From an uncultured Pelagimonas sp. (GTDB taxonomy: Bacteria; Pseudomonadota; Alphaproteobacteria; Rhodobacterales; Rhodobacteraceae), in NCBI RefSeq assembly GCF_947498515.1, contig NZ_CANMKO010000010.1, positions 130,137-162,136 on the forward strand: a stretch of DNA of 32,000 nt. Direction: 5' to 3'. Within the stretch, counting starts at the first letter, position 1. Every line of letters starts with the position of its first letter. This document shows, piece after piece, positions 3,863-24,757 of this stretch. The notes under the pieces are model-generated. The model was not told where the DNA came from. It did not search any database and saw only the letters and a program-made list of their open reading frames with translations. A program made the translations under genes and the position numbers.

Positions 3863-4540
3863 CTAGCGCCGGTAGGCTTGGGCAAGCGTCTCGGAATCGG
3901 TTCCTGACAAATGCCGTGCTAGGGTGATCAAATTGCGTGAACCGCGTTTGATCCAGCCTTGATTTTGGTATTTTTTCGCAGAGGTGACCGCTTGGATCGG
4001 CAGCTCAGCAAGCTTTCCGCGCAAAGCCCGCACCATTTCGACGTCTTCCATCAACGGCATAGCCCGAAATCCACCGACACCGTCATAAGTTTCGCGATCA
4101 ATCAACAGACCCTGATCGCCATAGGGCAGCCCAAAGCGGCGTGACCGAAAATTGGCCCACGCCGCGACAAAACGCGGGGCAAACCCCGTTGCATCAAACC
4201 GCAACTGGGCGTGATACCCGCCGGGTTTTGTCAGGGAATGTGATACCGGTCCGCTCCAGCCTTCGGACAAGACCGTGTCCGCATGTAAGAAGAACAACCA
4301 CTCGCCTTGCGCGGCATCTGCGCCTCGCTTTAACTGCTCGCCACGCGAGGCAGGTCCTTTGACAACCACACCTCCGGCGGCCTCGGCAATCTTGATCGTT
4401 GCATCAGATGACCCACCATCAGACACCAACAATTCGCGGATCAACCCGGCCTGCAACCCCTCGCCCAAGGCCGCCAAACAGAGCGGCAAGGCATCGGCTG
4501 CGTTCAGAGTTGGGATGATGACAGAGATCGGAGCGCGCAT
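3863..4540 (-). CDS. Family 2 glycosyltransferase
   Basis: GT2 N-terminal signature ISVIIPTLNAADAL...VSDGGSSD and a DxD-like HAD region. Start at the ATG at 4540 (MRAPISVIIP) is typical for this family; the alternative ATG at 4579 adds 13 aa. Confidence 0.72.
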   Translation of the reverse strand: MRAPISVIIPTLNAADALPLCLAALGEGLQAGLIRELLVSDGGSSDATIKIAEAAGGVVVKGPASRGEQLKRGADAAQGEWLFFLHADTVLSEGWSGPVSHSLTKPGGYHAQLRFDATGFAPRFVAAWANFRSRRFGLPYGDQGLLIDRETYDGVGGFRAMPLMEDVEMVRALRGKLAELPIQAVTSAKKYQNQGWIKRGSRNLITLARHLSGTDSETLAQAYRR

Positions 4541-4601
4541 GGGGCCTGTTCGTTTGGGGTTTCTCGGCCTATATGGCAATCACGAACAGAAGGAAACGGT
4601 G

Positions 4602-5339
4602 ATGAGCAACAAGACACGCAAAGTGCTGCGGCTGAGCGGCAGTGACGTGACGCATTTTTTGCAAGGCTTGGTCACAAACGATGTGGACCGTCTCGCAGAT
4701 GGGATCGTCTATACAGCGCTTTTGACGCCACAGGGTAAATACCGCGCCGATTTCTTTTTGGTACCGGACGGCGACGATGTTCTGATTGACGTGCAGGAGG
4801 ATCTGGCCGCCGCCCTCGCGCAGGTGCTTGGCATGTATAAGCTGCGCTCGGATGTGATCATTGCAGAGACCGACATAACCGTGACCCGTGGTGTTGGCGA
4901 GACGCCAGAGAGGGCTTTTGCCGATCCGCGCCATGCCTCCTTGGGTTGGCGTGGTTATCATGGGCAACCGGATCAGGATGTGGATTGGGACGCCCTGCGC
5001 GTCGCGGCTTGTGTTCCGCAAACCGGAGTTGAGCTTACACCCGACACTTTCATCCTGGAGGCGGGTTTTGAGCGTTTGAACGGCGTTGATTACAAAAAGG
5101 GCTGTTATGTTGGGCAAGAGGTAACCGCCCGCATGAAGCACAAGACCGAATTGCGCAAAGGCTTGGCAACGGTCGGTATTTCGGGAAGCGCCCCGGTCGG
5201 GACCGAGATCAAAGCCGGCGACAAAACCGCCGGCACCTTATTCACGCAATCGGGCAGTCAGGCCATCGCCTATCTCCGATTTGACCGCGCGACCGGTGAT
5301 ATGAGCGCAGAGACCGCAACGGTAACCTACAGCGGCTAA
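4602..5339 (+). CDS. ygfZ: YgfZ/CAF17-type folate-binding protein (GcvT-like fold)
   Basis: Conserved C-terminal motif KGCYVGQEVTARMKHK. ATG at 4602 is preceded by AGAAGGAA. The upstream 109 codons of ORF 4275..5339 are antisense to the GT2 gene and P/S/A-rich. Confidence 0.8.
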   Translation: MSNKTRKVLRLSGSDVTHFLQGLVTNDVDRLADGIVYTALLTPQGKYRADFFLVPDGDDVLIDVQEDLAAALAQVLGMYKLRSDVIIAETDITVTRGVGETPERAFADPRHASLGWRGYHGQPDQDVDWDALRVAACVPQTGVELTPDTFILEAGFERLNGVDYKKGCYVGQEVTARMKHKTELRKGLATVGISGSAPVGTEIKAGDKTAGTLFTQSGSQAIAYLRFDRATGDMSAETATVTYSG

Positions 5340-5363
5340 ACTACGGTTTCTGTGGCCTGTCGA

Positions 5364-5822
5364 TCAAAGGGTTTTGCGCAAAACCAAATACTGATCGACG
5401 GCCCCAACCGCATGATAAAACGGTTTTGCACCTTGGTTTGTGGCGTCCTGTGTCACCACCCAATTGGTAATCCCTTGCGCCCGCATCTCCGTTTCCATCG
5501 CGTCAACCAAACGATGGCCTAACCTTTGGCCACGATGGGTTGGGGCAATGTAGAGGTGGTCAGTTTTCATCCGGCGACCACCCCACCTAAGGCCGTCGGT
5601 TTGGATATCCTCTGGCAGTGCAAGAAGATAGGCGACCAAGCCCCAGCCCGCATCAATCGCATAGGTGATGGCCCCACGGTCCGCGAGTGTTTGCAGATGG
5701 GATAGATAGTCGGCGTCGCTCCCTTCGGCATGGTATTTGAACGGCGACAGGCACACGTGGAAATTGTGTAATGCCCGAAACAGGGGCAGCACATTGTGCA
5801 AGGGTGGATTTACAACAAGCAT
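5364..5822 (-). CDS. GNAT family N-acetyltransferase
   Basis: Acetyl-CoA binding motif A-like HRGQRLGHRLV followed by the PFYHAVGA region. ATG at 5822 has AGGAGG 8 nt upstream; the ORF-track start at 5825 is a TTG. Confidence 0.65.
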   Translation of the reverse strand: MLVVNPPLHNVLPLFRALHNFHVCLSPFKYHAEGSDADYLSHLQTLADRGAITYAIDAGWGLVAYLLALPEDIQTDGLRWGGRRMKTDHLYIAPTHRGQRLGHRLVDAMETEMRAQGITNWVVTQDATNQGAKPFYHAVGAVDQYLVLRKTL

Positions 5823-5858
5823 CAAAAAAGCCTCCTAAGCTTGCGCCGGAGGCTTTTA
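5823..5858 (-). terminator. Rho-independent terminator downstream of efp
   Basis: Minus-strand hairpin AAGCCTCC-(12 nt loop)-GGAGGCTT followed by TTTTTTG. The 3' arm contains the GNAT gene's AGGAGG. Confidence 0.65.
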
Positions 5859-5910
5859 AGTCAATTCTACACCCCCGGCTGTTCGGGGGATATGCGCGCG
5901 GGCCCCGAGG

Positions 5911-6474
5911 TCAGGCGCGCTCGGAATATTCCATGGTCTCGGTGTTGACGACAATAGCCTCGCCCTGGCCCACAAACGGTGGCACAGAGACACGCACGCC
6001 ATTGTCCAGCAGCGCTGGCTTAAAGCTATTCGCCGCCGTTTGGCCTTTGACGACCGGCTCGGTCTCTTCGATCACACAGGTGACTTTCTGAGGCACAGTC
6101 GCGCTTAGCGCTTCTTCCTCGTGGAACTCCACAACAATGGTCATGCCGTCCTGCAGAAACGGGCGACGCTCGCCTAGAATGGCGGCTGCGATCTGAACTT
6201 GATCGTAGGTTTCAGTGTCCATAAAGATCAGCTGACCGTCGTCTTCGTACAGGAACTGCATGTCCTTTTGCTCAAGGCGAACTTTCTCCACCTTGTCGGC
6301 GCTGCGAAAGCGTTCGTTAAGTTTGGACCCATTGCGCAGGTTGCGCAGCTCGACCTGAGCAAAGGCACCACCCTTGCCGGGTTTGACGTGGTCGACCTTC
6401 ACGGCGGCCCAAAGGGCGTTGTTGTGCTCGAGCACGTTTCCGGGGCGGATCTCGTTTCCGTTGATCTTTGGCAT
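5911..6474 (-). CDS. efp: Elongation factor P
   Basis: [17 protein letters not shown]...[17 protein letters not shown] is classic EF-P. It is 187 aa from the ATG at 6474; the 14 upstream codons of the ORF are not conserved-looking. Confidence 0.95.
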
Positions 6475-10663: not shown

Positions 10664-10737
10664 GGCGAGTTGGCGGAGTGGTTACGCAGCGGATTGCAAA
10701 TCCGTGTACACCGGTTCGATTCCGGTACTCGCCTCCA
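10664..10737 (+). tRNA. tRNA-Cys (anticodon GCA)
   Basis: Hand-folded cloverleaf. The 7-bp acceptor stem pairs GGCGAGT with ACTCGCC. The anticodon stem GCGGA/TCCGT carries loop TTGCAAA, and the T arm is ACCGG-TTCGATT-CCGGT. Discriminator is U73 and CCA is encoded. Confidence 0.9.
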
Positions 10738-10738
10738 A
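10724..10738 (+). repeat. attL core: 15-bp direct repeat GGTACTCGCCTCCAA (3' end of tRNA-Cys)
   Basis: Exact copy at 24743..24757. Confidence 0.8.
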
Positions 10739-10862
10739 ATATTCTATCAAGGTGCTGATTTTACTGATTATTTCAGCAAGACACCTAACCTCCCCGCAAC
10801 CTACCCCCCATCTTGTATGCATTTGATTGCAACAGATTGACACGGATCATGCTGCCTTTTCG

Positions 10863-13800
10863 TCACGAAATCTGGCCGCCAACTCCTTTGAATTTCTCGA
10901 CAAAGGCAGAAATCTTCTCGAAGACAGTCGCCTTCTTAGTCCGAAACTGTGGATTTAGTGGGCTCATTTTGGGGAGTATGGCATTTAAGTCGGCACCGTT
11001 TTCACTGGCAAATTCACGCTTTATGGAAGCCGAAATATAACGCTTTGCGGCGTCAGAGTTAAGGTGTTCTGACTTGATAAGCTCCTCTACTTCCTTGCGT
11101 TGCTCTGCTTGGGCAAATGAAAAAAATGCGTCAATCACGCCAGCCTTGTCATCAATCTGATCGAGATCAGTTCGGTTGATGTACTCCACTATCAGACTCT
11201 CTTTTGCCCTGTTGCCAAGACTGCCGCGAATGACACGGCGAGCATCTTCAATCAGATCTCCCTTGCTCTTCATTTTCTTGTTCTTGTCGAAAATTAGTTC
11301 AAGGATGTAATCGAGGTTGATCTCTTGCGATTTAAGAAGGTCGACCTCAAATACGACGTCATCCCACTCGATAGTGTTCTGTTCTTGCTCAACCGACGAC
11401 TTTTCTCGACGTATCCAATCGCGAATATCATTGTACGACGATCTATAATCTTGAACTGCTCTCTCTGAAGGTAGATCTATCGCCTCCAAGTCACGAAGGT
11501 CATCATCGTTCAGGTGGTGCTTTTGCTTAAACTCTTCGACGATATCCGCGTCTTTTGGGTCTAGGCCCCTATAGGCCTTCAGAGCTGAAAATTCATCATA
11601 GTTCCGAAGCACATTTTCGACCCTCAGATACTCACCGAAGAGCCTTGCAAACTCCTTCTTGTCTTCTTCTTTGACGATCTCGTCCGGATTGGGAAAGCGT
11701 TCGGTTAGCTCCTTAACAACATCTATGAACCCGCGTCGCGCCGCACCGGTATCCTGATCAACAAAACCATTCATGTACTCGTCGTAGCTCTTTTCCAGCA
11801 CGACGTTCTTTGTGTTCTTGTCACCGAACAACGTGATCGCATCAACTGTCGCTTGCTCAAGGTCCCTGAACGCTACAATATTGCCGAATGTCTTGGTCGC
11901 ATCGTAGATTCGGTTGGTCCTGGAGAATGCCTGCATCAAGCCATGGTAGCGGAGGTTTTTATCAACAAACAAGGTATTGAGCGTCGGAGCATCGAAGCCA
12001 GTAAGGAACATGCCGACGACAATTAACAGGTCGATATCCTTAGAGCGAACCCGGCTGGCAAGGTCGCGGTAGTAGTTCTGAAAACCACTGCTATCGACAC
12101 TGAAATTCGTCTTGAAAAAAGCATTATAGTCTTCGACTGTGGCGCTCAAAAATTCCTTCGCAGTGCTATTCATCGCTGAGATATCAAAGCTCTCGTCCTG
12201 AATGTCCCCGATTGCGTCTTGCTCTTCGTTGGCCGCAAACGAGAAGATCGTCGCGATCTTCAGCGGCTTTTCACTGTCTGCCTGCAGAGCGTTTAGGGTT
12301 TCGTAGTAGAGTTTGGCCGCATCTACACTACTGACGGCGAACATAGCGTTGAAGCCACTGCTTCCCGCATGCATTCGGTGGGTTTTCTGACGGAAATTGT
12401 TTAGAATGTACTGCGAAACTTCTCGAATACGTTCCGGATGAAGAAGCGCTTCTTTGCTCTCGGCAGCGCTGAGCTTCTTTTCATCTTGCTCCGTTTCAAT
12501 CGCCTTGAACTGAGGGCGTACGTCGTTGTAGTCGACCTTGAATTTCAGAACCTTTTCGTCGCGTATGGCGTCAGTAATCACATAGGAGTGCAGCTCACGG
12601 CCAAACACGCTGGCGGTCGTTTCAGCCCCTAGTGCATTCTCAGGAAAGATCGGCGTTCCGGTGAAGCCAAACTGATAAAATCGCTTGAACTTCTTTTTCA
12701 GGTTCTTCTGCGCCTCGCCAAACTGACTGCGATGGCATTCATCGAAGATGAAAACCACCTGCTGATCATAGACCGGCAAATCACCTTCCGATTTCATTAG
12801 GTTATTCAACTTCTGGATCGTCGTGACGATAATTCTATTATCGTCTTTGCCCAAATTGCGCTTCAACCCGGCGGTATTGTCAGAGCCGTTGACACTGTCA
12901 GGGGAAAATCGCTGGTATTCCTTCATGGTCTGGAAGTCGAGGTCCTTACGGTCCACGACGAAGAAGACCTTGTCGATGAATTTTAGGTCAGACGCTAACC
13001 GCGCAGCCTTGAAACTCGTCAGCGTTTTGCCGGAACCTGTGGTGTGCCAAATGAAACCACCGCTCTCCGGCTTCCTCCAGTTTTTGGCCTCATATGAGCT
13101 TTTGATCTTCCACAGAATGCGCTCAGTCGCTGCAATCTGGTAAGGGCGCATGATCAGCAACGTGTCGCTGACATCGAAAACCGAATACTGCAACAGAACG
13201 TTCAGCAGCGTGCGCTTCTGAAGGAAGGTCGCGGTGAAGTCCTTGAGATCTTTGATCAGTTCGTTGTCAGACTTCGCCCAATTCATGGTGAAGTCGAAGC
13301 TGTTCTTGTTGCGCTTGGTCGTGTTGGCGAAATACCGAGTGTCGGTGCCATTCGAAATCACGAAGAGCTGCAGGAATTTGAAGAGGGAGTGTTCAGTGTT
13401 GAAGCTTTCTTTGCTGTACCGGTGAATTTGGTTAAACGCCTCGCGAATGGCCACACCGCGCCGCTTTAGCTCGATCTGCACAAAGGGCAGACCATTGACC
13501 AAGATCGTCACATCATAGCGGTTGGCATGGGTGCCCACCTGCTCAAATTGTTTAATCACCTGCAGCTTGTTTCGCGCTTTGTTTTTCTTATCAAATAGAT
13601 AGATGTTCTGGATGCGTCCATCATCAAAGACAAAATCAAGGATGAAGTCATCATGAATTTTTCGCGCTTTGTCGGTAATACTGTCGCTGGGATTGTCCAG
13701 ATAGCTGTCATTGAACCGCTGCCATTCATCATCGGAGAAACGGACGTTGTTCAAAGCCTCTAGCTGTACCCGTACATTGGCCAGCATGGCTGCGGGGGTG

Positions 13801-13967
13801 GTCAGGGCGGGTAGGAATTCATAGCCTTGGTTCTGCAAATCCTGTACCAGTTCGCGCTCTAAATCATCTTCGCTTTGGTACTGCTCAGCAGCCTTCCAGT
13901 CCTTGGTGTATTTTTCAAGAACGATGTAATTAGGTGTCTCGGCAATCGGCGTTGTCTGCTCAGGCAT
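10863..13967 (-). CDS. hsdR: Type I restriction enzyme R subunit (IC family-like)
   Basis: PD-(D/E)xK nuclease motif D152...E166-x-K168 ([18 protein letters not shown]). SF2 helicase motif I TTGSGKT and motif II DECHRSQ. At 1034 aa it is comparable with EcoR124I HsdR. Its ATG overlaps the upstream stop by 8 nt. Confidence 0.93.
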
Positions 13968-15168
13968 TCTGTTCTTCCTGGCTAAAATATCCGTAGTTGT
14001 TAATGAGGTTCTTGAGCAAAATATCTATGTCTTGCTTCTGCTGATCTGTCGGCTCCGCCACTTCTTCAAACGAAAGCTCGCGGTGGCTGTAATGGTTGGT
14101 GAGTTTCTTCAAATAGTCCGCGCGGTCATCGGGGACCGATTTCAGCAACTTGGTCCAATGCTCGTAACCCAAGAAGTTTGCGGTCTTTTCGTAAAGGTTT
14201 CGAAGAAGGTTAAAATGAAACTTCTGGATGTTATCCTCAGAAATCGCCTTTTCTAGAATCTGCCTCAAATACAGATGATAGGAAAAGCTCTTGTTGGCCG
14301 CGCCCCTCTTTTCCTCAAGAACGAAAGACCCATCCTCCTTGCGCTCCAAGAGGTGGCCCGCTGGATTGGTGATCTCTTTGTGCAGAACGTTGTAAAAAAG
14401 TGGGTTGTGGGTCGTCAAAATGAACTTCACACCGGCACCGCCTTCAAAACGGCTGGAGTTGATCAGACCAGCCAAATCGAACGCCAGCTCTATCAGATGG
14501 TTTTCATCCAGAGAGCTTACCGGATCGTCGATAAAGACATACTGCAAGCCATCAAATTGATCATCTTCACGCTTGGTCTGGTCCGGTTCCTCCAAGATGC
14601 CAACCACCTCTTGCAGCAAGGTCAGGAAAACACTCCAAACAAAGTTGCTTTCTTCGCCTTTGGAAATCTTGATGTTGGTTTTTAGCTCGCCACCACCACC
14701 ATGTGAGAATTTCACTTCGGGATAGGTGGTTCGGTTTTCCCTTCTGCCTTGCTCGTTGGTGATCTGTACCACCTTTGGAGGGAACTCAGGCGTCAGCTTC
14801 TCATCCGTGTAGCGCCGGAAATTTTTGACAATCCCTTCATCCCCTTGAAAATTCAAAATCCAATCGGTGAAATCGTTCGGCTGGATGTCGATTTTGCGAA
14901 CTTCATCGTTATCCCGATCATTGTCCCAAACGAACAGGTCTTCGGTAAAGGCGCTGTAGTAAAGGATCTTGCGCCGAGTGAGTTCTTCCTCTTCACCATT
15001 CTCGGCCTTGGGCGCGACCAGATCTTTCACTGCACGGGACAGACGGGTTTTTCCGGTGCCGTTGAACGCATAGATCAGCTGCACCTTCTTGTCAGATTCG
15101 ACGAGCTTTTCTGCAACTGCCTTGATCTTGTCTTCTTGCATTTCTTGGGCTTCTACCTGCTCAGGCAT
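13960..15168 (-). CDS. prrC: PrrC-like ABC-type ATPase / anticodon nuclease (AAA_13-type)
   Basis: 402 aa, sited between hsdS and hsdR as in the E. coli prr locus. Walker A AFNGTGKT, signature-like ISKGEES, Walker B/D-loop [15 protein letters not shown], switch LTTHN. The C-terminal R323-x3-E327-x31-H359 has the same spacing as the reported EcoPrrC R320/E324/H356 triad. GAGGAGG lies upstream of the ATG. Confidence 0.72.
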
Positions 15169-16290
15169 CTATGCGACCTCCTCAGGTTTTGGGAAACTTA
15201 AGAGCAGATCGCGGTAGTATTCATATTGCTGCTGTCGCAACTTGATTTCGCGCGGCAGGCCCTCGCTGAGTGATGTAGTCAGCGTGTCGAACTTGTCGAG
15301 GATGGCAACGATGCGGGTTTGTTCTTCAAAAGAGGGAACCGGAATTTCTAGCTTCGATAAATCGGATTTATTGACAGCAGGAACACCCCCCTCTTTCTTA
15401 AGGGAGAGTAGCAACGCCGCCTTTGACTGAAAAAAATAGTATAGGTATTTATTGATCAAGAAGCTCTTATCCAGGGCTTGCAATTTGTAGCAGAGCGGAC
15501 CCAACCAAAATGGATCCCGCTGATACCCAACAAAGCCAATTCCTCCTTGCCCTCTAGAGGGCGTGGTGACTGTGTCGCCATCACAATTGCTAGCCGCTGC
15601 ATAACCTGATCGCGTGGTCCCTGCATTGATGTAGTCGAACTCGGTTGTCCTATCGAGAATTTCGGATGGCTTTTGCCCTGTTTTGATCTCGGTGATATCA
15701 CCCAAAATCTTCCATTCCACATCATCATCTTCAAAGCTCAAAAGCTGGTCGCGGTAATGGTTGTATTGTTGTTTGCGGGCCTTAAGCTCGGCTGTCAGCT
15801 CGGCTGTCAGCTCGGTGAAGCTGTCCAAAATCCGAACAATCTCTGCCTGTATCGCCAGCGATTTTTCTGGGTCTTCAGGGCATGGGACGGGGATCTCCAG
15901 CCTGTTCAGAATAGCTTGCGTTAGGCTAGGCCTTCCTGACCCAGTATCGAGCGCCATCAAGTCAATAGTCTTGATAAAGTGATACAGATACTTGGGAACC
16001 ACCTGACCCGTGTCGATATCTGTGTAGTAAATAGTGTCTACATTCCAAAATGGCTCTTCGACGTAAAAGATATTTGTGATCGAACCTTTTCTAGGAATTA
16101 GGACGGTGGGTCTATCATGCGAAAATGTATCAACGTACCCCATGATCCCGCCCGAACCGTAAACAGGGACATCACCTTCGTCCAGCTTTTTCCAATCCTT
16201 GCCGTGCTTGATTTTTGCAACTTTCTCTAACGGCAGCCATTCCACCGCAGCCCCATCCAGCAGCTTTTCCAGAAAGCCCAGATCGCTCAT
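15169..16290 (-). CDS. hsdS: Type I restriction-modification specificity subunit
   Basis: Two variable TRDs are separated by central conserved region [27 protein letters not shown]. The C-terminal conserved region is [24 protein letters not shown] overlap with hsdM. Confidence 0.9.
15785..15815 (-). repeat. 12-bp tandem repeat (about 2.6 copies) encoding (TAEL)n in the hsdS central conserved region
   Basis: Coding strand reads ACC GAG CTG ACA GCC GAG CTG ACA GCC GAG CTT, which translates to [11 protein letters not shown]. Confidence 0.9.
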
Positions 16291-17837
16291 GCCTCGATCT
16301 CCGCAACGATGGCATCGATGTCCGAACGTAGTTTGTTGATGTTGGCAACCGTTGTGACCAGCTCTGCATTCAGCTCGGTGATGTTGATTGCTTCGCGAGT
16401 GTCTTTAGGCTCCACATAGGCGCTGACCGACAGGTTGTAGTTGTTCGCGTCCGATGAGATTCTCTCGTAAGGTACGGTCTCGGCGACATGGGCCACGTTT
16501 TCTTTGCTGTCGAACAGATCGATGATCGCTTTAATGTGATCAGCATCCATGACGTTGTTGTTGGTTTTTTTGTCAAAGAACTGCTCGCCCGTTGCATCAA
16601 TGAACTGCACGGCAGTGTCTGTTTTGTTCTTAGCCAGCACCAGAATAGTCACCGCAATCGTCGTGCCGTAAAACAAGTTGGGCGCAAGCGCGATCACGGT
16701 TTCAACATAGTTGTTATCCACCAGATACTTGCGGATCTTTTGCTCTGCGCCGCCACGATAGAAAATACCCGGGAAGCAAACAATCGCCGCGCGGCCTTTG
16801 GCGGAAAGATAGCTGAGCGCGTGCAACACAAAGGCAAAATCCGCCTTGGATTTCGGGGCGAGCACGCCAGCGGGCGCAAAGCGTTCATCGTTGATCAAAG
16901 TCGGATCATCCGCCCCCACCCATTTCACCGAATAAGGCGGGTTAGACACGATGGCATCAAAGGGTTTGTCATCACCGAAATGAGGATCAATCAGGGTGTT
17001 GCCCAGCTGGATGTTGAACTTGTCATAGTTAATGTTGTGCAAGAACATATTCATGCGGGCTAGGTTGTAGGTGGTGTGGTTGATTTCCTGCCCGAAGAAA
17101 CCGTCTTCGACCACGTGATTTTTAAAGTGATCTTGGGCCTGCAACAGCAAAGAGCCTGAACCACAAGCAGGATCGTAAATTTTGTTGACCGTGGTTTGGC
17201 CGTGCATGGCAATCTGCGCGATCAGTTTGGACACATGGGTTGGGGTAAAGAACTCGCCCCCTGATTTGCCCGCATTGGCGGCGTAGTTCGAGATCAGGAA
17301 TTCATATGCATGGCCAAACATGTCTTCTTCGGTGTCATCAAAGTCCAAAGGCAGGCCTGCGACACCTTTGAGAACATCGCCCAAGCGCTTGTTTTTGTCT
17401 TTGACAGTGTTGCCAAGGCGGTTACTGGTGGTGTCGAAATCAGCAAACAGGCCTTTGATGTCTTCCTCAGACGGGTAACCGCTGGCCGATGCCTCAATCG
17501 CGGTGAAGATGGCTGCCAGATCGGTATTCAGGCTTTCATTGGTATTCGCCGCAGCGACCACGGTTGAAAACAGCTGGCTGGGATAGATGAAGTAGCCCTT
17601 GGTTTTAACCGCATCAATAACAACTTCGTCAGGAATGTCGGCGTCGGATATACTAGCATAGTTGACACTATCGTCACCCGCTTCGATATAGTTGGTAAAG
17701 TTCTCGCTGATGAACCGATAAAATAGAGCGCCAAGAACAAACTGTTTGAAGTCCCAACCATCGACGGCCCCGCGCACGTCGTTTGCGATCGCCCAGATTT
17801 GACGGTGTAATTCGTCGCGTTCTTGCTGGCCTGTCAT
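16287..17837 (-). CDS. hsdM: Type I restriction-modification N6-adenine DNA methyltransferase subunit
   Basis: SAM motif [12 protein letters not shown] and catalytic motif IV NPPY ([11 protein letters not shown]), with an HsdM N-terminal domain. ATGA overlaps with both neighbours. Confidence 0.93.
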
Positions 17838-18028
17838 TTCCCTGCCCCTTCTTGTTTTTGTTCTTGCTCAGCGATCCAGCGATCAATTTCGCTTTTGCGA
17901 AACCGCCATGCGCTGCCCACCTTGAAGCCCGGAACCTTGCCCTCTGACGCAAACCGGTATGCTGTTTTCTCAGCGATTTTGAGATACTCGGCGAGCTCTT
18001 TCACGGTCAAAATGTCGCCGCTGGCCAT
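17834..18028 (-). CDS. Small excisionase/MerR-type (HTH_17-like) DNA-binding protein, first gene of the R-M operon
   Basis: [46 protein letters not shown] is the typical excisionase-family HTH. GAGAGGA lies upstream. Its stop overlaps the hsdM ATG. Confidence 0.75.
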
Positions 18029-18057
18029 TTCGGAAATGTCCTCTCTGGGGGAAACAC

Positions 18058-18074
18058 GTTGAAACTAGTTGAAA
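18058..18074. promoter_or_regulatory. Candidate operator: GTTGAAA direct repeat at 10-bp spacing, containing palindrome AACTAGTT
   Basis: GTTGAAA at 18058-18064 and 18068-18074. It lies 30-46 nt upstream of the HTH gene start on the minus strand. Confidence 0.3.
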
Positions 18075-18192
18075 GGAGGAGAAGCAGCAAGCGTCCGCGT
18101 GATGGGGTCATCGTCGCACGTCATACATGGTAGACTGGCGAGAAACCAATGATTTCAGGACTTTGATGGTTATTGTAGAATAATGCAGAAGT

Positions 18193-18420
18193 TCACGACG
18201 CTTCCGGGAACAGACGCCTCACTGCTATCTCATTAATTGCCAAATCGAAGATTTCATAACAGTGGGCGGCGAGGTCCACACGGTCCTCGAACTCGTCAAT
18301 CAACACCATGCTGGGAAGCTCTTTAAGGCTCCCTGCGCGGCTGAGGACAACCTCGAAAGCCTCCAGCGCTTCGGGTCCATAACCTTCAAGGCTTGTCTCA
18401 TAGTCAAAAAGACTTTTCAT
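18193..18420 (-). CDS. Hypothetical small acidic protein (75 aa)
   Basis: ATG start, 16 D/E versus 6 K/R, no recognisable family. Confidence 0.5.
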   Translation of the reverse strand: MKSLFDYETSLEGYGPEALEAFEVVLSRAGSLKELPSMVLIDEFEDRVDLAAHCYEIFDLAINEIAVRRLFPEAS

Positions 18421-18488
18421 CTATTACTCTTCCTGCGCGAAATCTACGCCCCACTATAAACGTGACGCACAGCCCATAGCGGCGCTGA

Positions 18489-18851
18489 TTAGGGCTGATG
18501 CCCTCGCTGGATTTTGTCTTGAAACAAATCAGGGTGCTTCAACTCAATCGCACCCATTCCCTCATCCTCAATGACGCTGTACAGCAAGTCCACAGCTTGA
18601 AAGGGCGGAGACAAGGGAAGCCGCGCAGCGGTCAAGTTCTCTACCATGGCTCGTGTAAGCGTCGTTGCGCGCTCTACTGGGCTCTTCTTGGGATCCGCGA
18701 TTTCGTTCTCAGCTGTGATGCCATAGCAGGTCGCATGGGCAAGCCAGGCTGCGGCGCTCCCAGTTGTCAGACGGTCAAGAGGGGAGGCATTCTCGCTCAC
18801 GGCGAAAGCACGCAAACGAATAAAGGCGGCGAGGGTCGGGTTGTACGTCAT
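18489..18851 (-). CDS. Hypothetical protein (120 aa)
   Basis: ATG start, same strand as its neighbours and 17 nt after the upstream gene. Protein-like composition, no family recognised. Confidence 0.5.
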   Translation of the reverse strand: MTYNPTLAAFIRLRAFAVSENASPLDRLTTGSAAAWLAHATCYGITAENEIADPKKSPVERATTLTRAMVENLTAARLPLSPPFQAVDLLYSVIEDEGMGAIELKHPDLFQDKIQRGHQP

Positions 18852-18868
18852 GGCTAAATCCGTTTTGA

Positions 18869-19264
18869 TTACATCAGGCGAAGGGCTGCGAGGACACCCA
18901 AGAGGCCACCGGAAAACCCCGCGGAGAAAGCGACTAACGTTATCATTATTGTGAATTGCCGCGCGGACCTTGATGCCTTCTGCAATTCGCTCACCAGAGG
19001 AGAGGTCACAGTCGAAACCTTGGCTATGTGGGCCTTGAGATCAGCATCGATATGCACGGCCACACCCTTTTCGAGTTGCGTCTGAAGGTTCTGCAGGATT
19101 CGCCCAATTGCCCCCTCTTGCGATTTCATATGGCTGGTGGAGCTGGCCATCGCTTTGGAGATTTTATTCAAGGAGGCTTGCTGGTCATGAGCATTGTGCA
19201 GAAACCGGCGCAGATCGTGAAGGAGCAGGTCAGCCGGTTCGGCAGGATCTTTGAGATTTGTCAT
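18869..19264 (-). CDS. Hypothetical coiled-coil protein with C-terminal transmembrane helix (131 aa)
   Basis: C-terminal FTIMITLVAFSAGFSGGLLGVLAAL. Starts 13 nt after the relaxase stop. No clear SD. Confidence 0.5.
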   Translation of the reverse strand: MTNLKDPAEPADLLLHDLRRFLHNAHDQQASLNKISKAMASSTSHMKSQEGAIGRILQNLQTQLEKGVAVHIDADLKAHIAKVSTVTSPLVSELQKASRSARQFTIMITLVAFSAGFSGGLLGVLAALRLM

Positions 19265-19277
19265 AGTGTCATTTATC

Positions 19278-20975
19278 CTAGGGTTTCGGTGTTAGGCCGA
19301 CCGAGGGGGGTGAAATCTTTCGAGACAGAGGCCGACGGGGCCGTTGGAAAGGCATTAAAAGCGGTTGTTTGTGAGTGGGGGCGGATTGCTCTTGCTGAGC
19401 AGCAACTATGCCGGTTAGGCGTGCCATGGTTGCGCCCTTCTTCTGCAGGTGCCGACACCTTAGCTCTGCTTCAGCTTTTCTTCGGCGGCCTTCGCTAATT
19501 GCAAACTCTTCTGCAGTTGATCGTCCAGCACGCTGCAGCTCGCCTCTTCGCTGAGCAAGCCACGCAATGACTTGATAGACACGGCTTGAGAACGCATGAG
19601 CAAGCTTACGCAATCGAACAAGCAAGATATCTGTCTCCCAGTCCTGCTGGTCGAACGCGCTTCCAAGCCGTTCAATTCGACTGTTGATGCCTCGCAAGCC
19701 TTCACCAACCGCTCGACGCAAGTGAGCAAGTCGCGCTCTAAGGGCGTTAGGGTCGCCTTCATTCACCTCTCCATGATCTTGATGCAGTTGAGCGTCTTGC
19801 CCGCAATCTTGCAGCGGCTGAGCTTGACCCTGTCGGGGTCTAGTGTCATCCAGACCTGCCCCCTCTGCTCGATCTTGGTCAGGCCAAGTTCCGTAAACTC
19901 CGAACGTGTCAACAGCACCGTCCAGAGCCAACTCGCAGCCATCATCGAGGTAACCCCCATCAAGATCAGACCCGAGATCAGCAAGGGTGAGATCGCCAGC
20001 CAGTGCCGGATCGAACGAAGTTGCGTCTCGAAAATGTTCGCCATCTCGATCTGAAAGCTTCGGGTATCTCTTTCGATTGTAACCTGCGCGTTTCGCGCAA
20101 TTACTTTCAAATTGCGCCTGAAGTCCTTCTGTTGTGCAGCGATCAAGCCGATGTGCTCTTGGCGCATGGCCTCCAACTCCTCGTTCAACTTCTGGCTCAG
20201 ACGGATCTGTTTGCCAGCCCTCATTAAAAACCTCCCCTTTCATTCGCCAGCGCTCCCCGGTTTCAGGGTCCCTAACGGTCAAGTAAGCTTTGCCCAAACG
20301 TGGAAGGTCGAAGCCTGCATCATGAAGCGCCTCAAGCAAGCTATTGCGGTCGGTGATCAGGCCGACACTCACTAAGTCGAGGATCCACGCGTGCAATTCG
20401 TCGCGACCATGGGCGCGGATCGGGGCCTCAATGGTGTCGCGCACCTCCTGGGCGCGCTCTAACTCCATCGGATCGGCCCAACCGTGGCACCGGTTCATAA
20501 CGTCCCGCAGGCTGTCATAGGCGTCCTGGTAGCCGGGCGGCGCGATGTTGAAACTCTTACCTGTCGTCAGCTCCAGGCGCGGCGTGCAGAAATGCAGCTC
20601 GACCCGGCCTTCGTGGCGATGGCGGACCCAGAGCACCTCATATTGCTCAGGGTCCAGCCCCGCGAAGGCCAGACGCTCGAACTCGTCCATGACCTCGGCC
20701 TGTTGGTCTTCGGTCGGGTCGTCAGTGTCGGCAAAGCTGATCACGCCCGCGCGGTAGGTCCACTGATGGCGGCTGGCGTCGATCAGGGCCTCGGTGCGCT
20801 CGGGGTTGCCGCGCAGGACCTCGGGCAGTGGGTCGCGCGTGACGGTGACTGGCTGGCCATTGGCATCACGGATCAGGTCACGGTTGCCGTCATAGGCCAG
20901 CACGCGATCTGCCACGAGGTAACCGACCGGACCCGCGCCCGCGCCTTTGCCATTAGAGAAGAACTTGATCAGCAC
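19278..20975 (-). CDS. Relaxase/mobilization nuclease, MbeA (ColE1, HEN-motif)-like
   Basis: N-terminal candidate catalytic Tyr Y19 (GPVGYLV). Metal-binding motif H119-x6-E126-x-H128 (WVRHRHEGRVELHF) has the spacing of the MbeA H97/E104/N106 motif. The GTG start overlaps the mobC stop. The first 250 codons or so have very high GC3. The remaining 315 codons or so are open but have low GC3 (see findings). Confidence 0.8.
   Translation of the reverse strand: MLIKFFSNGKGAGAGPVGYLVADRVLAYDGNRDLIRDANGQPVTVTRDPLPEVLRGNPERTEALIDASRHQWTYRAGVISFADTDDPTEDQQAEVMDEFERLAFAGLDPEQYEVLWVRHRHEGRVELHFCTPRLELTTGKSFNIAPPGYQDAYDSLRDVMNRCHGWADPMELERAQEVRDTIEAPIRAHGRDELHAWILDLVSVGLITDRNSLLEALHDAGFDLPRLGKAYLTVRDPETGERWRMKGEVFNEGWQTDPSEPEVERGVGGHAPRAHRLDRCTTEGLQAQFESNCAKRAGYNRKRYPKLSDRDGEHFRDATSFDPALAGDLTLADLGSDLDGGYLDDGCELALDGAVDTFGVYGTWPDQDRAEGAGLDDTRPRQGQAQPLQDCGQDAQLHQDHGEVNEGDPNALRARLAHLRRAVGEGLRGINSRIERLGSAFDQQDWETDILLVRLRKLAHAFSSRVYQVIAWLAQRRGELQRAGRSTAEEFAISEGRRRKAEAELRCRHLQKKGATMARLTGIVAAQQEQSAPTHKQPLLMPFQRPRRPLSRKISPPSVGLTPKP
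19460..19762 (-). CDS. Second nested same-strand ORF inside the relaxase gene (100 aa, coiled coil); MbeD-like position
   Basis: Starts immediately after the stop of the 153-aa ORF (AGG TGA ATG), with GGAGAGG upstream. GC3 is about 70% in the sampled C-terminal 45 codons. Confidence 0.5.
   Translation of the reverse strand: MKATLTPLERDLLTCVERLVKACEASTVELNGLEARSTSRTGRQISCLFDCVSLLMRSQAVSIKSLRGLLSEEASCSVLDDQLQKSLQLAKAAEEKLKQS
19763..20224 (-). CDS. Nested same-strand ORF inside the relaxase gene (153 aa, coiled coil plus TM); MbeB-like position
   Basis: The ATG is preceded by GGGGAGG with a 6-nt spacer. GC3 is about 76% by hand count, versus about 40% for the relaxase frame over the same bases. 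Hydrophobic segment WLAISPLLISGLILMGVTSMMAASWLWTVLL. Confidence 0.6.
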   Translation of the reverse strand: MRAGKQIRLSQKLNEELEAMRQEHIGLIAAQQKDFRRNLKVIARNAQVTIERDTRSFQIEMANIFETQLRSIRHWLAISPLLISGLILMGVTSMMAASWLWTVLLTRSEFTELGLTKIEQRGQVWMTLDPDRVKLSRCKIAGKTLNCIKIMER

Positions 20976-21442
20976 CGCCGCACCTCATCGAGGAGTGCGT
21001 CAAGCTGGCGTTCAATCACCACGAGGTGACGCGCGAGGGCCAGCGTGTCGAGGTCCGTCCGCCCGATCTTCATGGCTTGATTCAGCCAACGGGCGATCTG
21101 GTTGAGGTTGCCACCGATGCGCCCGACGGCTAGCACAAAGGCCGGATCGACGCGCGGGATGGGCTTGCGGCGGCGCGCTTCGGTGAGGCCAAGCGCCTCG
21201 CGCAAAAGCGTCGAGGCAGGCAGGCCAGCAGCCTCGGCCTTGGCGCGCAGTTGGGCCTTCTCGGACGCGGTGCAGCGGAAGACGAAGGTCTCGGTCAGCA
21301 GCTCTTTGGTGGGGGCGTTGCCCACGCCGGTGGGGTTCGAAGGGGAGGCTTGCCGCCACTCGCAAGGTCCCGTGTCATCGGCGCAGCCGTATGACATGGG
21401 TCGCCTTGCTGATGGCGCTTTGGTCGCTCTCGTGGTGCTCAT
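20969..21442 (-). CDS. mobC: MobC-type relaxosome accessory protein (RHH plus MobC domain)
   Basis: FVFRCTASEKAQLRAKAEAAGL (RHH-like) and GRIGGNLNQIARWLN (MobC signature). Start set at the ATG at 21442, which forms an ATGA overlap with the upstream gene. The ORF-track extension to 21658 lies inside the upstream gene. Confidence 0.8.
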   Translation of the reverse strand: MSTTRATKAPSARRPMSYGCADDTGPCEWRQASPSNPTGVGNAPTKELLTETFVFRCTASEKAQLRAKAEAAGLPASTLLREALGLTEARRRKPIPRVDPAFVLAVGRIGGNLNQIARWLNQAMKIGRTDLDTLALARHLVVIERQLDALLDEVRRC

Positions 21443-22329
21443 ATTTTGAGACCCGCCGCACGGATTTGCGCCTTGGTCACGAGCTTGGAAGCCAAGAGCG
21501 CGTCGATCTGGCTGGGTGTGATGAGGCGGCAAAGTGCATGTTTTTCGGCAATCCAATTCGCCAATCCGGCCAGCATCTCGGCTTCCTTTGCTTTTCTCTC
21601 CTCTCGGCCTTTGGTGATGTCCCCGACGTAGGCACGCCAGCGCTCCGATTTGAACCAATTGTCCGAAAAACAGACCTTCGAGCGGGTAAAGTCCGCGCTT
21701 TCGGTGGCGTAGGCTTTCACAGCATCCATGAAGTCTTTGGGGCTGACACCTTCGTCCAACGCGGCCCTGATCTTCCTCAGACAGTCCGCCTTCCCGCGCT
21801 GACGGTCGCTCGGATAGACAGCCAAGACTTTATCAGCCAATTCATCCTCCACCGCCACGCGCTCGCGCATGGGAGGTTTATGGATGGTTTTAGGGTGGTT
21901 TGGGGGGCGCGGTGACCCCAGAACCTCGGTCACTCCGCCTCCCATTCTGGGTTCAGTCAGGACGGGGCCCACCGAGGATTCCATCTCAGTATCGAGCCCA
22001 GTGATCGGTTGAAGCGTTCTTACTCTTCCAAGATCGATCTGGTAAACGACCGTGAAACCATTCTTGCATCTCCGCTTACCAGTCTCGACCAAAATGCCTT
22101 CTTGCAAGAAGGCCCGGATAGTTCGTTTGACCGTCGTCTCGCCAAGCTCGGTATGCTGACGGATCGTCCCCTTCGAGCACCAAATGTCAGAGCCATCATC
22201 CGAGGCCTTGTCCGCAAGGAACATGATGATCTGCTTTCGCGGCGCACTCCCGAACTTCCTGGCAGTGCAGGCCTTTTCCACTCGCCAGCTCATCGGACTA
22301 CTGGGAGCGACCCCAACTTGGCGAGGCAT
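21439..22329 (-). CDS. Winged-helix DNA-binding protein of unknown role (296 aa)
   Basis: N-terminal wHTH-like KQIIMFLADKASDDGSDIWCSKGTIRQHTELGETTVKRTIRAFLQEGILV. The C-terminal domain is unrecognised. Translationally coupled to mobC. Confidence 0.6.
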   Translation of the reverse strand: MPRQVGVAPSSPMSWRVEKACTARKFGSAPRKQIIMFLADKASDDGSDIWCSKGTIRQHTELGETTVKRTIRAFLQEGILVETGKRRCKNGFTVVYQIDLGRVRTLQPITGLDTEMESSVGPVLTEPRMGGGVTEVLGSPRPPNHPKTIHKPPMRERVAVEDELADKVLAVYPSDRQRGKADCLRKIRAALDEGVSPKDFMDAVKAYATESADFTRSKVCFSDNWFKSERWRAYVGDITKGREERKAKEAEMLAGLANWIAEKHALCRLITPSQIDALLASKLVTKAQIRAAGLKI

Positions 22330-22499
22330 TCTTTTACGTTGGACATTTTGTGATTTTCCGCTGCGTGGCGCAGTATTTCAGTGGGCTTGGACCATACGCT
22401 AGTCCAGGTTTTTAGAGGTAAGGCTTTCTCGCCCCACAAGCAGAAAAAGAAAGCTGGATTGTGTAAGCGCGATGCCAACAATTCACTTGGCATGAGAAC

Positions 22500-22688
22500 T
22501 CACCCTACAGAGCGGTTGGCTGAGCTGAGTTCTTCGAGCCAATCATCCACTTCAGCCTTCTTCCATCGCTTACAGCCAGGAGAAAGGGCGTGTGGCTTTG
22601 GGAATGAGTTACGTTCTGCCGTCCAGCGCCAGACCGTGGCACGTGAAATCGATAGAAAAGCTGCAAGCTCTTTGTCGGAAAGGAACAT
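22500..22688 (-). CDS. alpA: AlpA-family HTH regulator / putative excisionase
   Basis: FLSDKELAAFLSISRATVWRWTAERNSFPKPHALSPGCKRWKKAEVDDWL is AlpA-like. ATG at 22688 has GAGGA 7 nt upstream; the ORF-track start at 22721 is a TTG. Confidence 0.75.
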   Translation of the reverse strand: MFLSDKELAAFLSISRATVWRWTAERNSFPKPHALSPGCKRWKKAEVDDWLEELSSANRSVG

Positions 22689-22744
22689 TAAGACATCCTC
22701 GTTTTTTTGGATGTCTCCCAATCTTCACGCTGCGGGCATCAAAT

Positions 22745-23335
22745 CTATGCCTGATTTAACAGAAGCAGTAGGTCAATTTGCGAAAAAGTGTTCCTCTTGT
22801 CCCTGATATCCCTTTCGCGCCGCTCCCAAATCGCCCTTATACCATTGGCTGAATTAGGCTTTTTGCCCAAATTCCGATTTGCTTGAGCGACAATCTCATA
22901 GGCGAAGAAAAAACCACTGCTTACAGTTTCGGAGCGCGGAACCCCTCTTTCTTCGAGCTCGTTAACGATCAAATGGATCGTCCTGTCGCGCTCGAAATTC
23001 TCTCCGGGAAATGCTCTTCGGGATCTCCGATTACGTTTCGGCTTCGGTAACTTACCGGCTAAGTATTTCCCCAGCCATTCCTCCATAAGCTTGGGTACCG
23101 GCTGAGCTGTTCGCACCAAATGCGCAATTGTCAGCTGTACGGCCTCATAGGACAAAGGCTCTGTTGATGCGGTGACGAGGAGCGACTGCAGCGATGCACT
23201 ATCTCCCGACTGAATGGTGTGGCGATTGAACAGATCCATAATCTCAACTTGACTGTATTGTTGCTCGAAATCCAGCAACGCATCAATTGCGTACTTCAGT
23301 GCTTCAAACTCTCCAAACGTGCTAGTTTCCTGCAA
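22745..23335 (-). CDS. Hypothetical protein (up to 196 aa)
   Basis: The ORF overlaps the integrase stop by 14 nt. Its start is uncertain (TTG at 23335 or ATG at 23239). No family recognised. Confidence 0.45.
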   Translation of the reverse strand: MQETSTFGEFEALKYAIDALLDFEQQYSQVEIMDLFNRHTIQSGDSASLQSLLVTASTEPLSYEAVQLTIAHLVRTAQPVPKLMEEWLGKYLAGKLPKPKRNRRSRRAFPGENFERDRTIHLIVNELEERGVPRSETVSSGFFFAYEIVAQANRNLGKKPNSANGIRAIWERRERDIRDKRNTFSQIDLLLLLNQA

Positions 23336-24587
23336 GAAAGCCTCCCCAATCTGTCATCATCGCTCGCCTCTTTTCGATGAGATCCGAGCGGGCATATGCG
23401 CGCTCGACCTTAGTGCCAAGAAAATGCCAAAGCGCGGCTTCAGATAGCGTCCACTCGTAAGAAGTACGTTCGGAAGCCCAATCCTTGAATGTCGAGCGAA
23501 AACCGTGGGCTACGGCCACTTTGCCCGTTTGGGCATCTAAGAAACCACTGCGTTCGCATTTTACATCTTCAGTATGGACGGATTTCAAAACCTTACCGAT
23601 TGAAGCGTCGGACAACGCTCCACCACGCGGCGCAGCGAACACGTAAGGTGAGTCCGAGCGTCTCGGAACTTGATCCAAAACTATTTGCATCTGTGGCGTA
23701 ACGGGAACTCGGCGCGCGCCCATCTTCCTTGTTACCTTCGAAGACTTCCTTAGTGGCTGTACTGTCCAGACTTCCTCCGTAGTGTCGAGCTCGTCCCAAG
23801 TCATAAACCGAACCGCTCCCGTGCGTGTTGCAGTTAGGAGTTGAAAAGATAGTGCGAGCTTTGAAATGCCCGACCTCCTTTGTATTGCGGCCCAACACCT
23901 CTGCGCGTCCTTCAACTGTACTGCCGGGTAGTTACTTTCATCCGAACCGTCGGCCGGACGCGGCAAAATCTTTGAGAGCTCATTCGACCAGACTGCTGGG
24001 TTGTCGCCAACAAAATACTCTTTGGCCTTGCAGAAATCCAACGTCTCGCTGAGCTTTCGGCGCAATTTGTCGGCTGTCGGTCGCTTTTCCTCCCAAATGG
24101 GGACGAGCACCTCAACGATGTCTTCTCTGGTTAGCTCCGCAACGGACTTATTGCCCAAGATTGGAAGCGCATATTCATCAACACTATTTCGCCAATTCTT
24201 CCGATAGCTCGTATCCTTCGCTAGCATTTTTTCTTTTATCGGAACGAACTCTTCGAAGGCTTTTTGAAATGCCACACACCGCTTCGTTTTTGCGACAAGC
24301 TCTTTCCGGAGGTGCCTCCTCTCCTCCACCGGATCGACGCCATTCCTGATCGTTGACTTCATCTCAGACGCAGAAACGCGAGCATTTTTGAGTGACACTT
24401 CCGGGAAGCCGCCCAAACCAATTTCACGGCGCCTTCCACCCACAATCGTGCGAAGTAGCCATGAACGCGCTCCTGTGCATGAAACTTGAAGGCATAGACC
24501 GGAAACCCCTCCAACCGCATGCAGTCCTGGAGCATTTAATCTTTTCACTTCGATCGCCGATAATTCTTTAGCCAGTTTCGGCATCAT
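23322..24587 (-). CDS. int: Tyrosine recombinase/integrase (P4-type with DUF4102-like arm-binding N-terminus)
   Basis: N-terminal LSAIEVKRL...GLHAVGGVSGLCLQV...SWLLR. Catalytic residues R (LLTATRTGAV), HxxR (HGFRSTFKDW) and Y (ERAYARSD). Confidence 0.9.
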   Translation of the reverse strand: MMPKLAKELSAIEVKRLNAPGLHAVGGVSGLCLQVSCTGARSWLLRTIVGGRRREIGLGGFPEVSLKNARVSASEMKSTIRNGVDPVEERRHLRKELVAKTKRCVAFQKAFEEFVPIKEKMLAKDTSYRKNWRNSVDEYALPILGNKSVAELTREDIVEVLVPIWEEKRPTADKLRRKLSETLDFCKAKEYFVGDNPAVWSNELSKILPRPADGSDESNYPAVQLKDAQRCWAAIQRRSGISKLALSFQLLTATRTGAVRFMTWDELDTTEEVWTVQPLRKSSKVTRKMGARRVPVTPQMQIVLDQVPRRSDSPYVFAAPRGGALSDASIGKVLKSVHTEDVKCERSGFLDAQTGKVAVAHGFRSTFKDWASERTSYEWTLSEAALWHFLGTKVERAYARSDLIEKRRAMMTDWGGFLAGN

Positions 24588-24742
24588 TCCTACCCACCAA
24601 AAAACCCATCATAAACAATACTACTTGATGCGATTTATTGCAACAGCATGAGAGGGGAGAGGTACTCCATTTCAATTATAAATTACCATTATCAGTACGT
24701 TATGAGCGCGATTGCGCCCAGATAAGACTATACTGCGGAGTT

Positions 24743-24757
24743 GGTACTCGCCTCCAA
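24743..24757 (+). repeat. attR core: second copy of GGTACTCGCCTCCAA
   Basis: Exact match to the last 14 nt of tRNA-Cys plus 1 nt, located 156 bp beyond the integrase start. Confidence 0.8.

Follow-up and report, generated by a model that had tools for sequence, protein, structure and literature searches.

The plasmids RSF1010 and R1162 carry an accessory gene, mobB, wholly inside their relaxase gene mobA and read in another frame. In ColE1-like plasmids both mobB and mobD are contained entirely within mobA (PMC5935869, PMC6118388), and in ColE1 itself (NC_001371) the annotation and the open reading frames (ORFs) place mbeC at 1867-2190, mbeA at 2180-3733, mbeB at 2868-3386, and mbeD at 3393-3626. 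The Paracoccus plasmids pMARC2 and pAES4 possess MOBP5/HEN modules in which mobA, mobB, and mobC overlap, with an origin of transfer (oriT) upstream of mobC (PMC3832669). Here, a stretch of 32,000 nt from an uncultured Pelagimonas sp. of the Rhodobacterales (contig NZ_CANMKO010000010.1, positions 130,137 to 162,136), referred to below as the window, was analyzed for a relaxase gene that contains two further ORFs in its 3' half. Comparison of the sequences indicates that the window very probably contains a ColE1-type (MOBP5/HEN) mobilization operon in an integrative mobilizable island at a tRNA-Cys gene, and that the 3' half of this relaxase gene is truly dual-coding.

The three genes are all encoded on the minus strand. 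The MbeA-like (MOBP5/HEN-type) relaxase gene (19278..20975 in the ORF list) starts with GTG and encodes 565 amino acids (aa). The nested gene B (19763..20224, 153 aa) and the nested gene D (19460..19762, 100 aa) were taken from the same list; the ATG of B is 751 nt downstream of the relaxase start, which puts both genes in the +1 frame of the relaxase. These are the ORFs and the frame that had been proposed in the initial annotation. The MbeB-like B protein consists of a helical N-terminal region, a single hydrophobic segment, and a C-terminal region with two invariant cysteines (C138 and C147); the segment, read from the translation as a putative transmembrane stretch, covers aa 76-105 (19910..19999). 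D is predicted to be helical and occupies the position of MbeD. A Shine-Dalgarno (SD) sequence, GGGGAGG (20231..20237), is found 6 nt before the B ATG at 20224, inside the relaxase codons for K-G-E. Where B and D meet (19760..19772), GGAGAGG (19772-19766) precedes the B stop codon TGA (19765-19763), which abuts the D start codon ATG (19762). Both SD sequences and the TGA-ATG junction were thus read as they had been reported. The third frame contains 22 stops over 19460-20224, the relaxase frame none, and the nested frame none besides the real stops of B and D.

The codon signature of the relaxase gene changes at the beginning of B. Its first 250 codons (20225..20975) encode the N-terminal nuclease domain with Y19 and H119/E126/H128 and are single-coding: the other two frames hold 12 and 15 stops, and the GC content of third codon positions (GC3) is 0.77, in agreement with the earlier remark that most of the early codons end in G or C. 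In the relaxase frame GC3 was 0.40 over 19763-20224 and 0.44 over 19460-19762, and in the nested frame it was 0.76 and 0.69, respectively; the values over B reproduce the hand counts of about 40% and 76%. In a 150-nt sliding window the change occurred around nt 680-750 of the relaxase gene, at the nested start, where the collapse of the signature had been described. When the order of the nested codons was shuffled, 4.9 + 3.6 stops were expected in the relaxase frame across the two nested ORFs (probability of none, 0.003 and 0.010), and 5.0 + 2.4 were expected when synonymous nested codons were permuted. None was observed, and the expectations from shuffling and permutation indicate that the initial estimate of 5-10 chance stops was right.

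The reverse calculation is less informative about the nested frame. For the +1 frame, shuffling of the relaxase codons predicted 2.3 stops, against 2 actually seen, so the openness of the nested frame is unsurprising in one sequence, and the window alone cannot prove that the nested genes exist. This result, together with the failure of any family model to match either nested ORF, is what could be said for the nested ORFs not being genes at all, but standing open by chance through a relaxase-frame composition that disfavors +1 stops. The argument for the nested genes comes from comparative data that reach beyond the window.

For this comparison, a scan with one genome per species yielded 306 confirmed loci, of which 80, from different species of Rhodobacterales, were fetched; two plasmid loci, L001 (Ruegeria) and L002 (Neotabrizicola), were added to give 82 loci in total. 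A megablast search against plasmids returned two records only. Among the 81 sequences in which the relaxase start could be placed, the relaxase was 507-520 aa long, the B orthologue began at the same start codon and was 153 or 142 aa long in about 79, the D orthologue was 99 or 100 aa long in 79, and the D ATG abutted the B stop in 80. Conservation of the nested start, SD, and stop sites across orthologues, which had been suggested as a check, was therefore nearly complete, with the SD at the B start, AAAGGAG, kept in about 75 of 80 related loci. This SD is spelled by the codons AAA-GGA, and GGA makes up 3% of the Gly codons elsewhere in the N-terminal part of the relaxase gene. The sequence GAGGAG-N3-(TAG/TGA)ATG was kept in the relatives at the B/D junction, and the relaxase stop codon always came shortly after that of D.

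In the related loci, the third frame of the overlap held 21-29 stops, and the relaxase frame held a single stop over 79 loci, although about 3.1 per locus were expected when the synonymous codons of B and D were permuted. A search for stops in either frame, also suggested earlier, showed both frames to be open apart from four of about 81 loci with one disabling stop each: in the relaxase at aa 445 (L004) and aa 243 (L054), in B (L060), and in D (L082). The other frame was intact in each of these four, which are likely to be decaying copies or sequencing errors. Antisense ORFs across this region, such as 19596-20054 on the plus strand, were considered as genes and rejected; all three antisense frames contain about 4-5 stops per frame on average in the relatives, and the frame codon-for-codon antisense to the relaxase had at least 2 stops in each of 79 loci.

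B was also recognized in more distant sequences. An exhaustive search found 63 representative proteins, and the two cysteines and the hydrophobic segment were kept in relatives with only 20-25% identity; a hydrophobic stretch was present at the same site in all 30 of the aligned family members. A distant metagenomic locus (L093), from a metagenome scan with a four-sequence alignment, had the same nested pair in the same place. The B protein of this locus was 43% identical to P0168, a B-family member with 23% identity to the B protein of the window. The relaxase and nested pair of L093 are followed by a 619-aa ORF (4060-5919) with a Walker A-like motif, AGTRAGKGVS, which on inspection by eye resembles a type IV coupling protein.

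Selection on each frame was evaluated with our own OLGenie-style, overlap-aware estimator of the ratio of nonsynonymous to synonymous substitution rates (dN/dS), applied to 400 sequence pairs with bootstrapping over codons. The N-terminal part served as a control and behaved as it should, with a dN/dS of 0.14 in the relaxase frame and of 0.87 in the +1 frame (confidence interval (CI) 0.68-1.12, not significant). For the overlap with B and D, dN/dS in the nested frame was 0.46 (95% CI 0.37-0.57), with values of 0.50 for B and 0.43 for D. Diversity at relaxase codon positions 1/2/3 was.086/.064/.307 in the N-terminal half,.222/.159/.166 in the overlap with B, and.255/.148/.159 in the overlap with D. 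The maximum in the overlap thus falls on relaxase position 1, where the nested frame has its wobble base, and is damped compared to a free wobble position. Genome-like GC3, the placement of this maximum, and a dN/dS close to 0.46 all identify the nested frame as the main source of constraint in this region. Purifying selection acts on B and D as on ordinary proteins, and the start signals of B (SD and ATG) are selected too.

These comparative data already contradict the notion that the nested ORFs are open merely by chance, which can be regarded as extremely unlikely. Wobble variability and the dN/dS of 0.46 track the nested frame, while the N-terminal +1 control is about 0.9; about 79 of 81 loci retain the ATG, the stop-ATG junction, the lengths of the ORFs, and the SD, which uses the rare codon GGA; B keeps its hydrophobic segment and two cysteines at an identity as low as 20-25%; B has a profile match to MbeB, described below; and both ORFs were called by NCBI's PGAP in L002.

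Another possibility is that B is made not only, or not at all, as a separate product. Programmed +1 frameshifting near the SD-like AAAGGAG would yield a membrane-anchored fusion of the relaxase domain and B, and the presence of an SD-like element in coding sequence just before the switch in codon signature could, speculatively, be taken to fit. However, B is provided with a conserved ATG of its own, normally spaced from the SD, no shift-prone site was identified, and the relaxase frame stays open for 300 more codons, which frameshifting does not require. The ColE1 proteins MbeB and MbeD are moreover separate in the PGAP annotation. Frameshifting is therefore very unlikely, and independent initiation of B within a dual-coding relaxase gene is the preferred explanation.

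The relaxase frame behaves differently in the overlap. Its dN/dS was 0.81 (CI 0.65-0.99), only marginally below neutrality. The initial claim that both frames are under selection was supported, with one qualification: one stop in 79 loci and the nested dN/dS of 0.46 agree with it, but selection on the relaxase amino acid sequence is weak. It could be argued from this that the overlap is important for the nested genes alone, and that the functional relaxase is a 250-aa N-terminal domain followed by some 300 C-terminal residues that are a tolerated tail without function. A dN/dS with an upper limit of 0.99, a relaxase-frame GC3 of 0.40-0.44, and a C-terminal half with no detectable similarity to that of ColE1 MbeA are all compatible with such a tail, as is a predicted confidence (pLDDT) of 27-34 over relaxase aa 303-410, though the whole model is poor. 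In a tail without function, though, stops should accrue, and one was found in 79 loci where about 3.1 were expected in each. The relaxase stop is always placed just past the D stop, the full extent is kept in ColE1 as well, and the best 120 of the 766 homologous relaxase clusters are all 505-568 aa long. The missing stops and the retained length and extent indicate that the open relaxase frame is itself under selection, and a functionless tail is unlikely.

The relaxase family comprised 766 homologous protein clusters at E <= 1e-10, and the named organisms among the best 120 were Rhodobacterales. Termination of the relaxase near aa 250 in relatives, which had been named as an outcome that would speak against dual coding, was ruled out by the lengths of these 120 clusters, none of which ends there. 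The AlphaFold2 model of the relaxase, built with 38 homologues, had a mean pLDDT of 43.5 and a pTM of 0.26. Even the known nuclease fold was modeled poorly, and low confidence in the C-terminal half can therefore not be read as disorder. A profile search of PDB sequences with the relaxase gave no match.

Taken together, the C-terminal amino acid sequence of the relaxase appears to be weakly constrained, with its frame strongly protected from stops. Nearly free drift in a frame that is held open suggests a need for length or composition of the relaxase rather than for a precise sequence. Past D, the relaxase gene continues as a single-coding tail of 60 codons and a stop (19278..19459). Most relatives end about 13 codons past the D stop, for a total of 517-518 aa, so the tail in the window, which ends in ...TPKP, is about 48 aa longer than in this majority. 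A long tail ending in ...TPKP was seen in a minority of relatives (P0003, P0005, P0023, P0104, and P0116).

The N-terminal part of the relaxase is readily assigned. It passed Pfam PF03432 with 27.7 bits (gathering cutoff 24.6) over aa 74-150, and aa 1-308 matched the NCBIfam model NF047848 (relax_MbeA_E1) at 1.2e-36 with 126.9 bits. This score falls short of the curated cutoff (500 bits), and the match extends over no more than positions 1-285 of the 497 in the profile; the protein is therefore an MbeA homologue and not an MbeA equivalog. BLASTP aligned it to ColE1 MbeA with 30% identity (E = 5e-36), and profile-profile comparison of the N-terminal part with the MbeA type gave 99.8%. In motif I, GPVGY19LV of the relaxase aligned with GPVDY19LL of MbeA, so that the catalytic Tyr is matched, and H119/E126/H128 aligned with H97/E104/N106. 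The residues and the resemblance to the MbeA N-terminus that had been noted initially are thus borne out by alignment. Motif III of the relaxase (H119-x6-E126-x-H128; aa 119-128, 20591-20621) was invariant at all three residues in 38 relatives.

The resemblance to ColE1 extends to the layout of the operon. In both, a ribbon-helix-helix (RHH) gene overlaps the start of the relaxase gene, the relaxase gene holds two tandem ORFs in its 3' half, and the full-length extent of the relaxase is kept. The nested frame is +1 in both, at an offset of 688 nt in ColE1 and 751 nt here, and the relaxase residue at which the nested ATG falls is also shared in the alignment (aa 251 here, aa 230 in ColE1). This residue lies in a common relaxase motif, LKGxF[Y/H]E, which corresponds to CTGAAAGGAG..ATTTT.ATG in the DNA; the nucleotides at the B start are CTGAAAGGAGCATTTTATG in ColE1 and CTGAAAGGAGAGATTTTCCATG in the Rhodobacterales consensus. 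An SD-like sequence is found at the B stop in both lineages, GAGGAG in the relatives here and GAAGGAG in ColE1. In ColE1 the arrangement is GAAGGAG-TGA-N6-GTG, with a 6-nt gap, whereas here the stop of B runs straight into the start of D (TGA-ATG).

The proteins agree to different degrees. B and MbeB have a common architecture, in which a helical N-terminal part is followed by a single hydrophobic segment and then by a small C-terminal domain. A comparison of 30 B-family sequences to 14 MbeB sequences with hhalign gave 92.9% and E = 3.8e-7 over 137 columns, with the hydrophobic segments aligned to each other, and its score of 47 exceeded those of the reversed (21) and the column- or block-shuffled (<=21) controls. 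B is therefore likely to be homologous to MbeB. The two cysteines that are invariant in B are missing from MbeB. D is 100 aa long and MbeD 77 aa, with no convincing similarity between them, and D is the equivalent of MbeD by position only. Profile comparison of the C-terminal halves of the relaxases of the ColE1 and Rhodobacterales lineages detected no similarity (0.2%), which fits the asymmetry of selection. The initial annotation had suggested an analogous but unrecognised counterpart of the ColE1 layout. The order, frame, and start are indeed the same, but the arrangement is homologous to mbeA/mbeB/mbeD of ColE1, not just analogous.

Several observations weigh against a ColE1-type, dual-coding operon and should be considered with the nearly neutral dN/dS of the relaxase frame. 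The compared sequences share descent, and the locus counts are thus not fully independent. BLASTP found no match between B and ColE1 MbeB or between D and ColE1 MbeD, no Pfam or NCBIfam model matched B and D either singly or as families, and PF04899 (MbeD_MobD) was not matched by 10 members of the D family. The hhalign comparison of D to MbeD was weak (11.8%, E = 0.0025, score 21 against controls of <=16) and covered only the N-terminal 48 columns around an LTxLExxLLxxxExL stretch. The H-E-N motif III for which the MOBP5/HEN clade is named is replaced by H-E-H in the relaxase, as compared to H-E-N in MbeA. Since spacing and the Glu are retained, H-E-H can be viewed as a variant of the HEN motif, and its invariance in the 38 relatives marks it as the signature of a distinct subclade. 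Finally, an oriT was not located: alignment of the 500 nt upstream of the 296-aa gene that precedes the RHH gene, from 15 loci, revealed tRNA genes only, without a common non-coding block.

A mechanism can be proposed from the order of the genes and by analogy to ColE1. The first 250 relaxase codons specify the nicking domain in one frame, and nearly all of the 3' half is coding in two. Ribosomes probably start independently at the internal SD and ATG of B, inside the relaxase motif (L/M)KGE(I/V)F(H/N)E, and the +1 frame would then yield the MbeB-like, single-pass membrane protein B (153 aa) followed by the helical protein D (100 aa) in the MbeD position, the latter probably through translational coupling at the TGA-ATG junction. 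A single mRNA would thus provide relaxase, B, and D. As in ColE1, the relaxase and MobC would nick a putative oriT and pilot the DNA to the conjugation system of a helper, and, following the roles described for ColE1 (PMC5935869), B may be a membrane-associated accessory factor and D an accessory or entry-exclusion factor.

The genes adjacent to the relaxase are consistent in relatives on one side only. The MobC/NikA-like RHH gene (20969..21442, minus strand; Pfam NikA-like 7.9e-13, MobC 5.3e-5) overlaps the relaxase start with its stop by 7 nt and immediately precedes the relaxase gene in 80 of the 82 related loci. Its frame is open to 21658, and its start is likely the ATG at 21442, in an ATGA overlap with the gene upstream. 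That gene (21439..22329, minus strand) encodes 296 aa and was found at a fixed offset in 60 of 82 loci. Its counterparts in L001 and L002 are annotated as 'helix-turn-helix domain-containing protein', and the Pfam model HTH_36 matched it only below the cutoff (E = 0.026). The 296-aa gene, the MobC-like gene, and the relaxase gene with its nested pair were the only genes that traveled together across the relatives. Downstream of the relaxase are ORFs of 131 aa with a C-terminal hydrophobic segment (18869-19264), 120 aa (18489-18851), and 75 aa (18193-18420), none of which had a family match. They were considered as members of the module (18193-19264) and ruled out, being absent from 82 of 82 related loci.

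The operon is located within an integrated island of about 14 kb (10724..24757), which is bounded by a 15-bp direct repeat, GGTACTCGCCTCCAA. One copy (10724-10738) forms the 3' end of a tRNA-Cys gene (10664-10737) and the second (24743-24757) lies just outside the integrase gene; the pair probably corresponds to the attachment sites used by an integrative mobilizable island. Pfam identified a tyrosine integrase (23322-24587), an AlpA-like gene (22500-22721), and, as island cargo, type I restriction-modification genes (10863-17837): hsdM (16287-17837), hsdS (15169-16290), and hsdR (10863-13967). Between hsdS and hsdR is a gene for a 402-aa AAA_13 ATPase (13960-15168), which may be an extra defense component. 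No conjugation genes were found within the approximately 14-kb island, which is most aptly described as an integrative mobilizable element. In many relatives the mobilization module is at the tRNA-proximal edge of its island, with the tRNA of the window at the far end; in L005, L006, L009, L024, L058, L070, L076, and L079 a tRNA gene (GGCCCCGTGGCTCAACTGGATAGAGCAG...) was found about 200-300 nt upstream of the 296-aa gene.

Existing annotations rarely show both coding layers of such loci. In L002 (3385-4155) the PLSDB gene table, which omits pseudogenes, gives the nested ORFs as hypothetical proteins and does not list the relaxase, and in L001 (3952-5514) the relaxase alone is listed. In the gene calls of the ColE1-like contigs L084-L091, MbeB and MbeD are present and the relaxase is not. 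Gene callers report one of two overlapping genes, usually the relaxase, and B and D are therefore missing from most annotations of Rhodobacterales islands. A word-index search of 5.8 billion clusters returned one homologue of B, compared to the 63 representatives found exhaustively and at least 766 clusters for the relaxase, and no curated hidden Markov model (HMM) recognizes B or D. An HMM made from the B and D family alignments (A3 and A6) would permit proper annotation of mobilizable islands of this type. Because the Paracoccus MOBP5/HEN modules have already been described (PMC3832669), the arrangement can be called unrecognised with respect to annotation and not with respect to the literature.

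Of the two frames in the overlap, that of the relaxase may be the younger, as suggested by the genome-like GC3 of its nested counterpart and by the composition-driven, fast drift of the C-terminal half of the relaxase. A broader reading, tentative and somewhat short of an even chance, is that the overlap is ancient and asymmetric: the mobB/mobD-type frame would be older, and the C-terminal half of the relaxase would be a younger, overprinted extension that has been open since before the lineages split. The mobB- and mobD-type genes would then still be alignable by profile between alpha- and gammaproteobacterial elements, and the C-terminal half of the relaxase would drift nearly neutrally and would have diverged beyond recognition. 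Such a history implies a role of the relaxase C-terminus that depends on length or composition, for example as a disordered linker or secretion signal. If it is true, a family of several hundred nested genes in islands of the Rhodobacterales is nearly missing from annotations, Pfam, and NCBIfam. The locus is a clean and deeply sampled case of two overlapping bacterial genes under unequal selection, with the start signals of the nested gene spelled within a conserved motif of the host protein.

Compared by their description, the modules of pMARC2 and pAES4 resemble the one in the window in their Rhodobacterales hosts, MbeA-type relaxase, and three overlapping ORFs, but are plasmid-borne, said to resemble Aeromonas pAsal2, and without a reported mobD (PMC3832669). 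The known picture of ColE1-type mobilization is unchanged by this locus. RSF1010 and R1162 differ in belonging to the MOBQ family; a single gene is nested in their relaxase gene, the relaxase is fused to a primase, and mobC is divergent. ColE1 is a small enterobacterial plasmid, whereas the operon described here is part of an island in a Rhodobacterales chromosome; the nested arrangement long known from ColE1 is thus found in a genomic island of a marine bacterium, a new lineage and setting.

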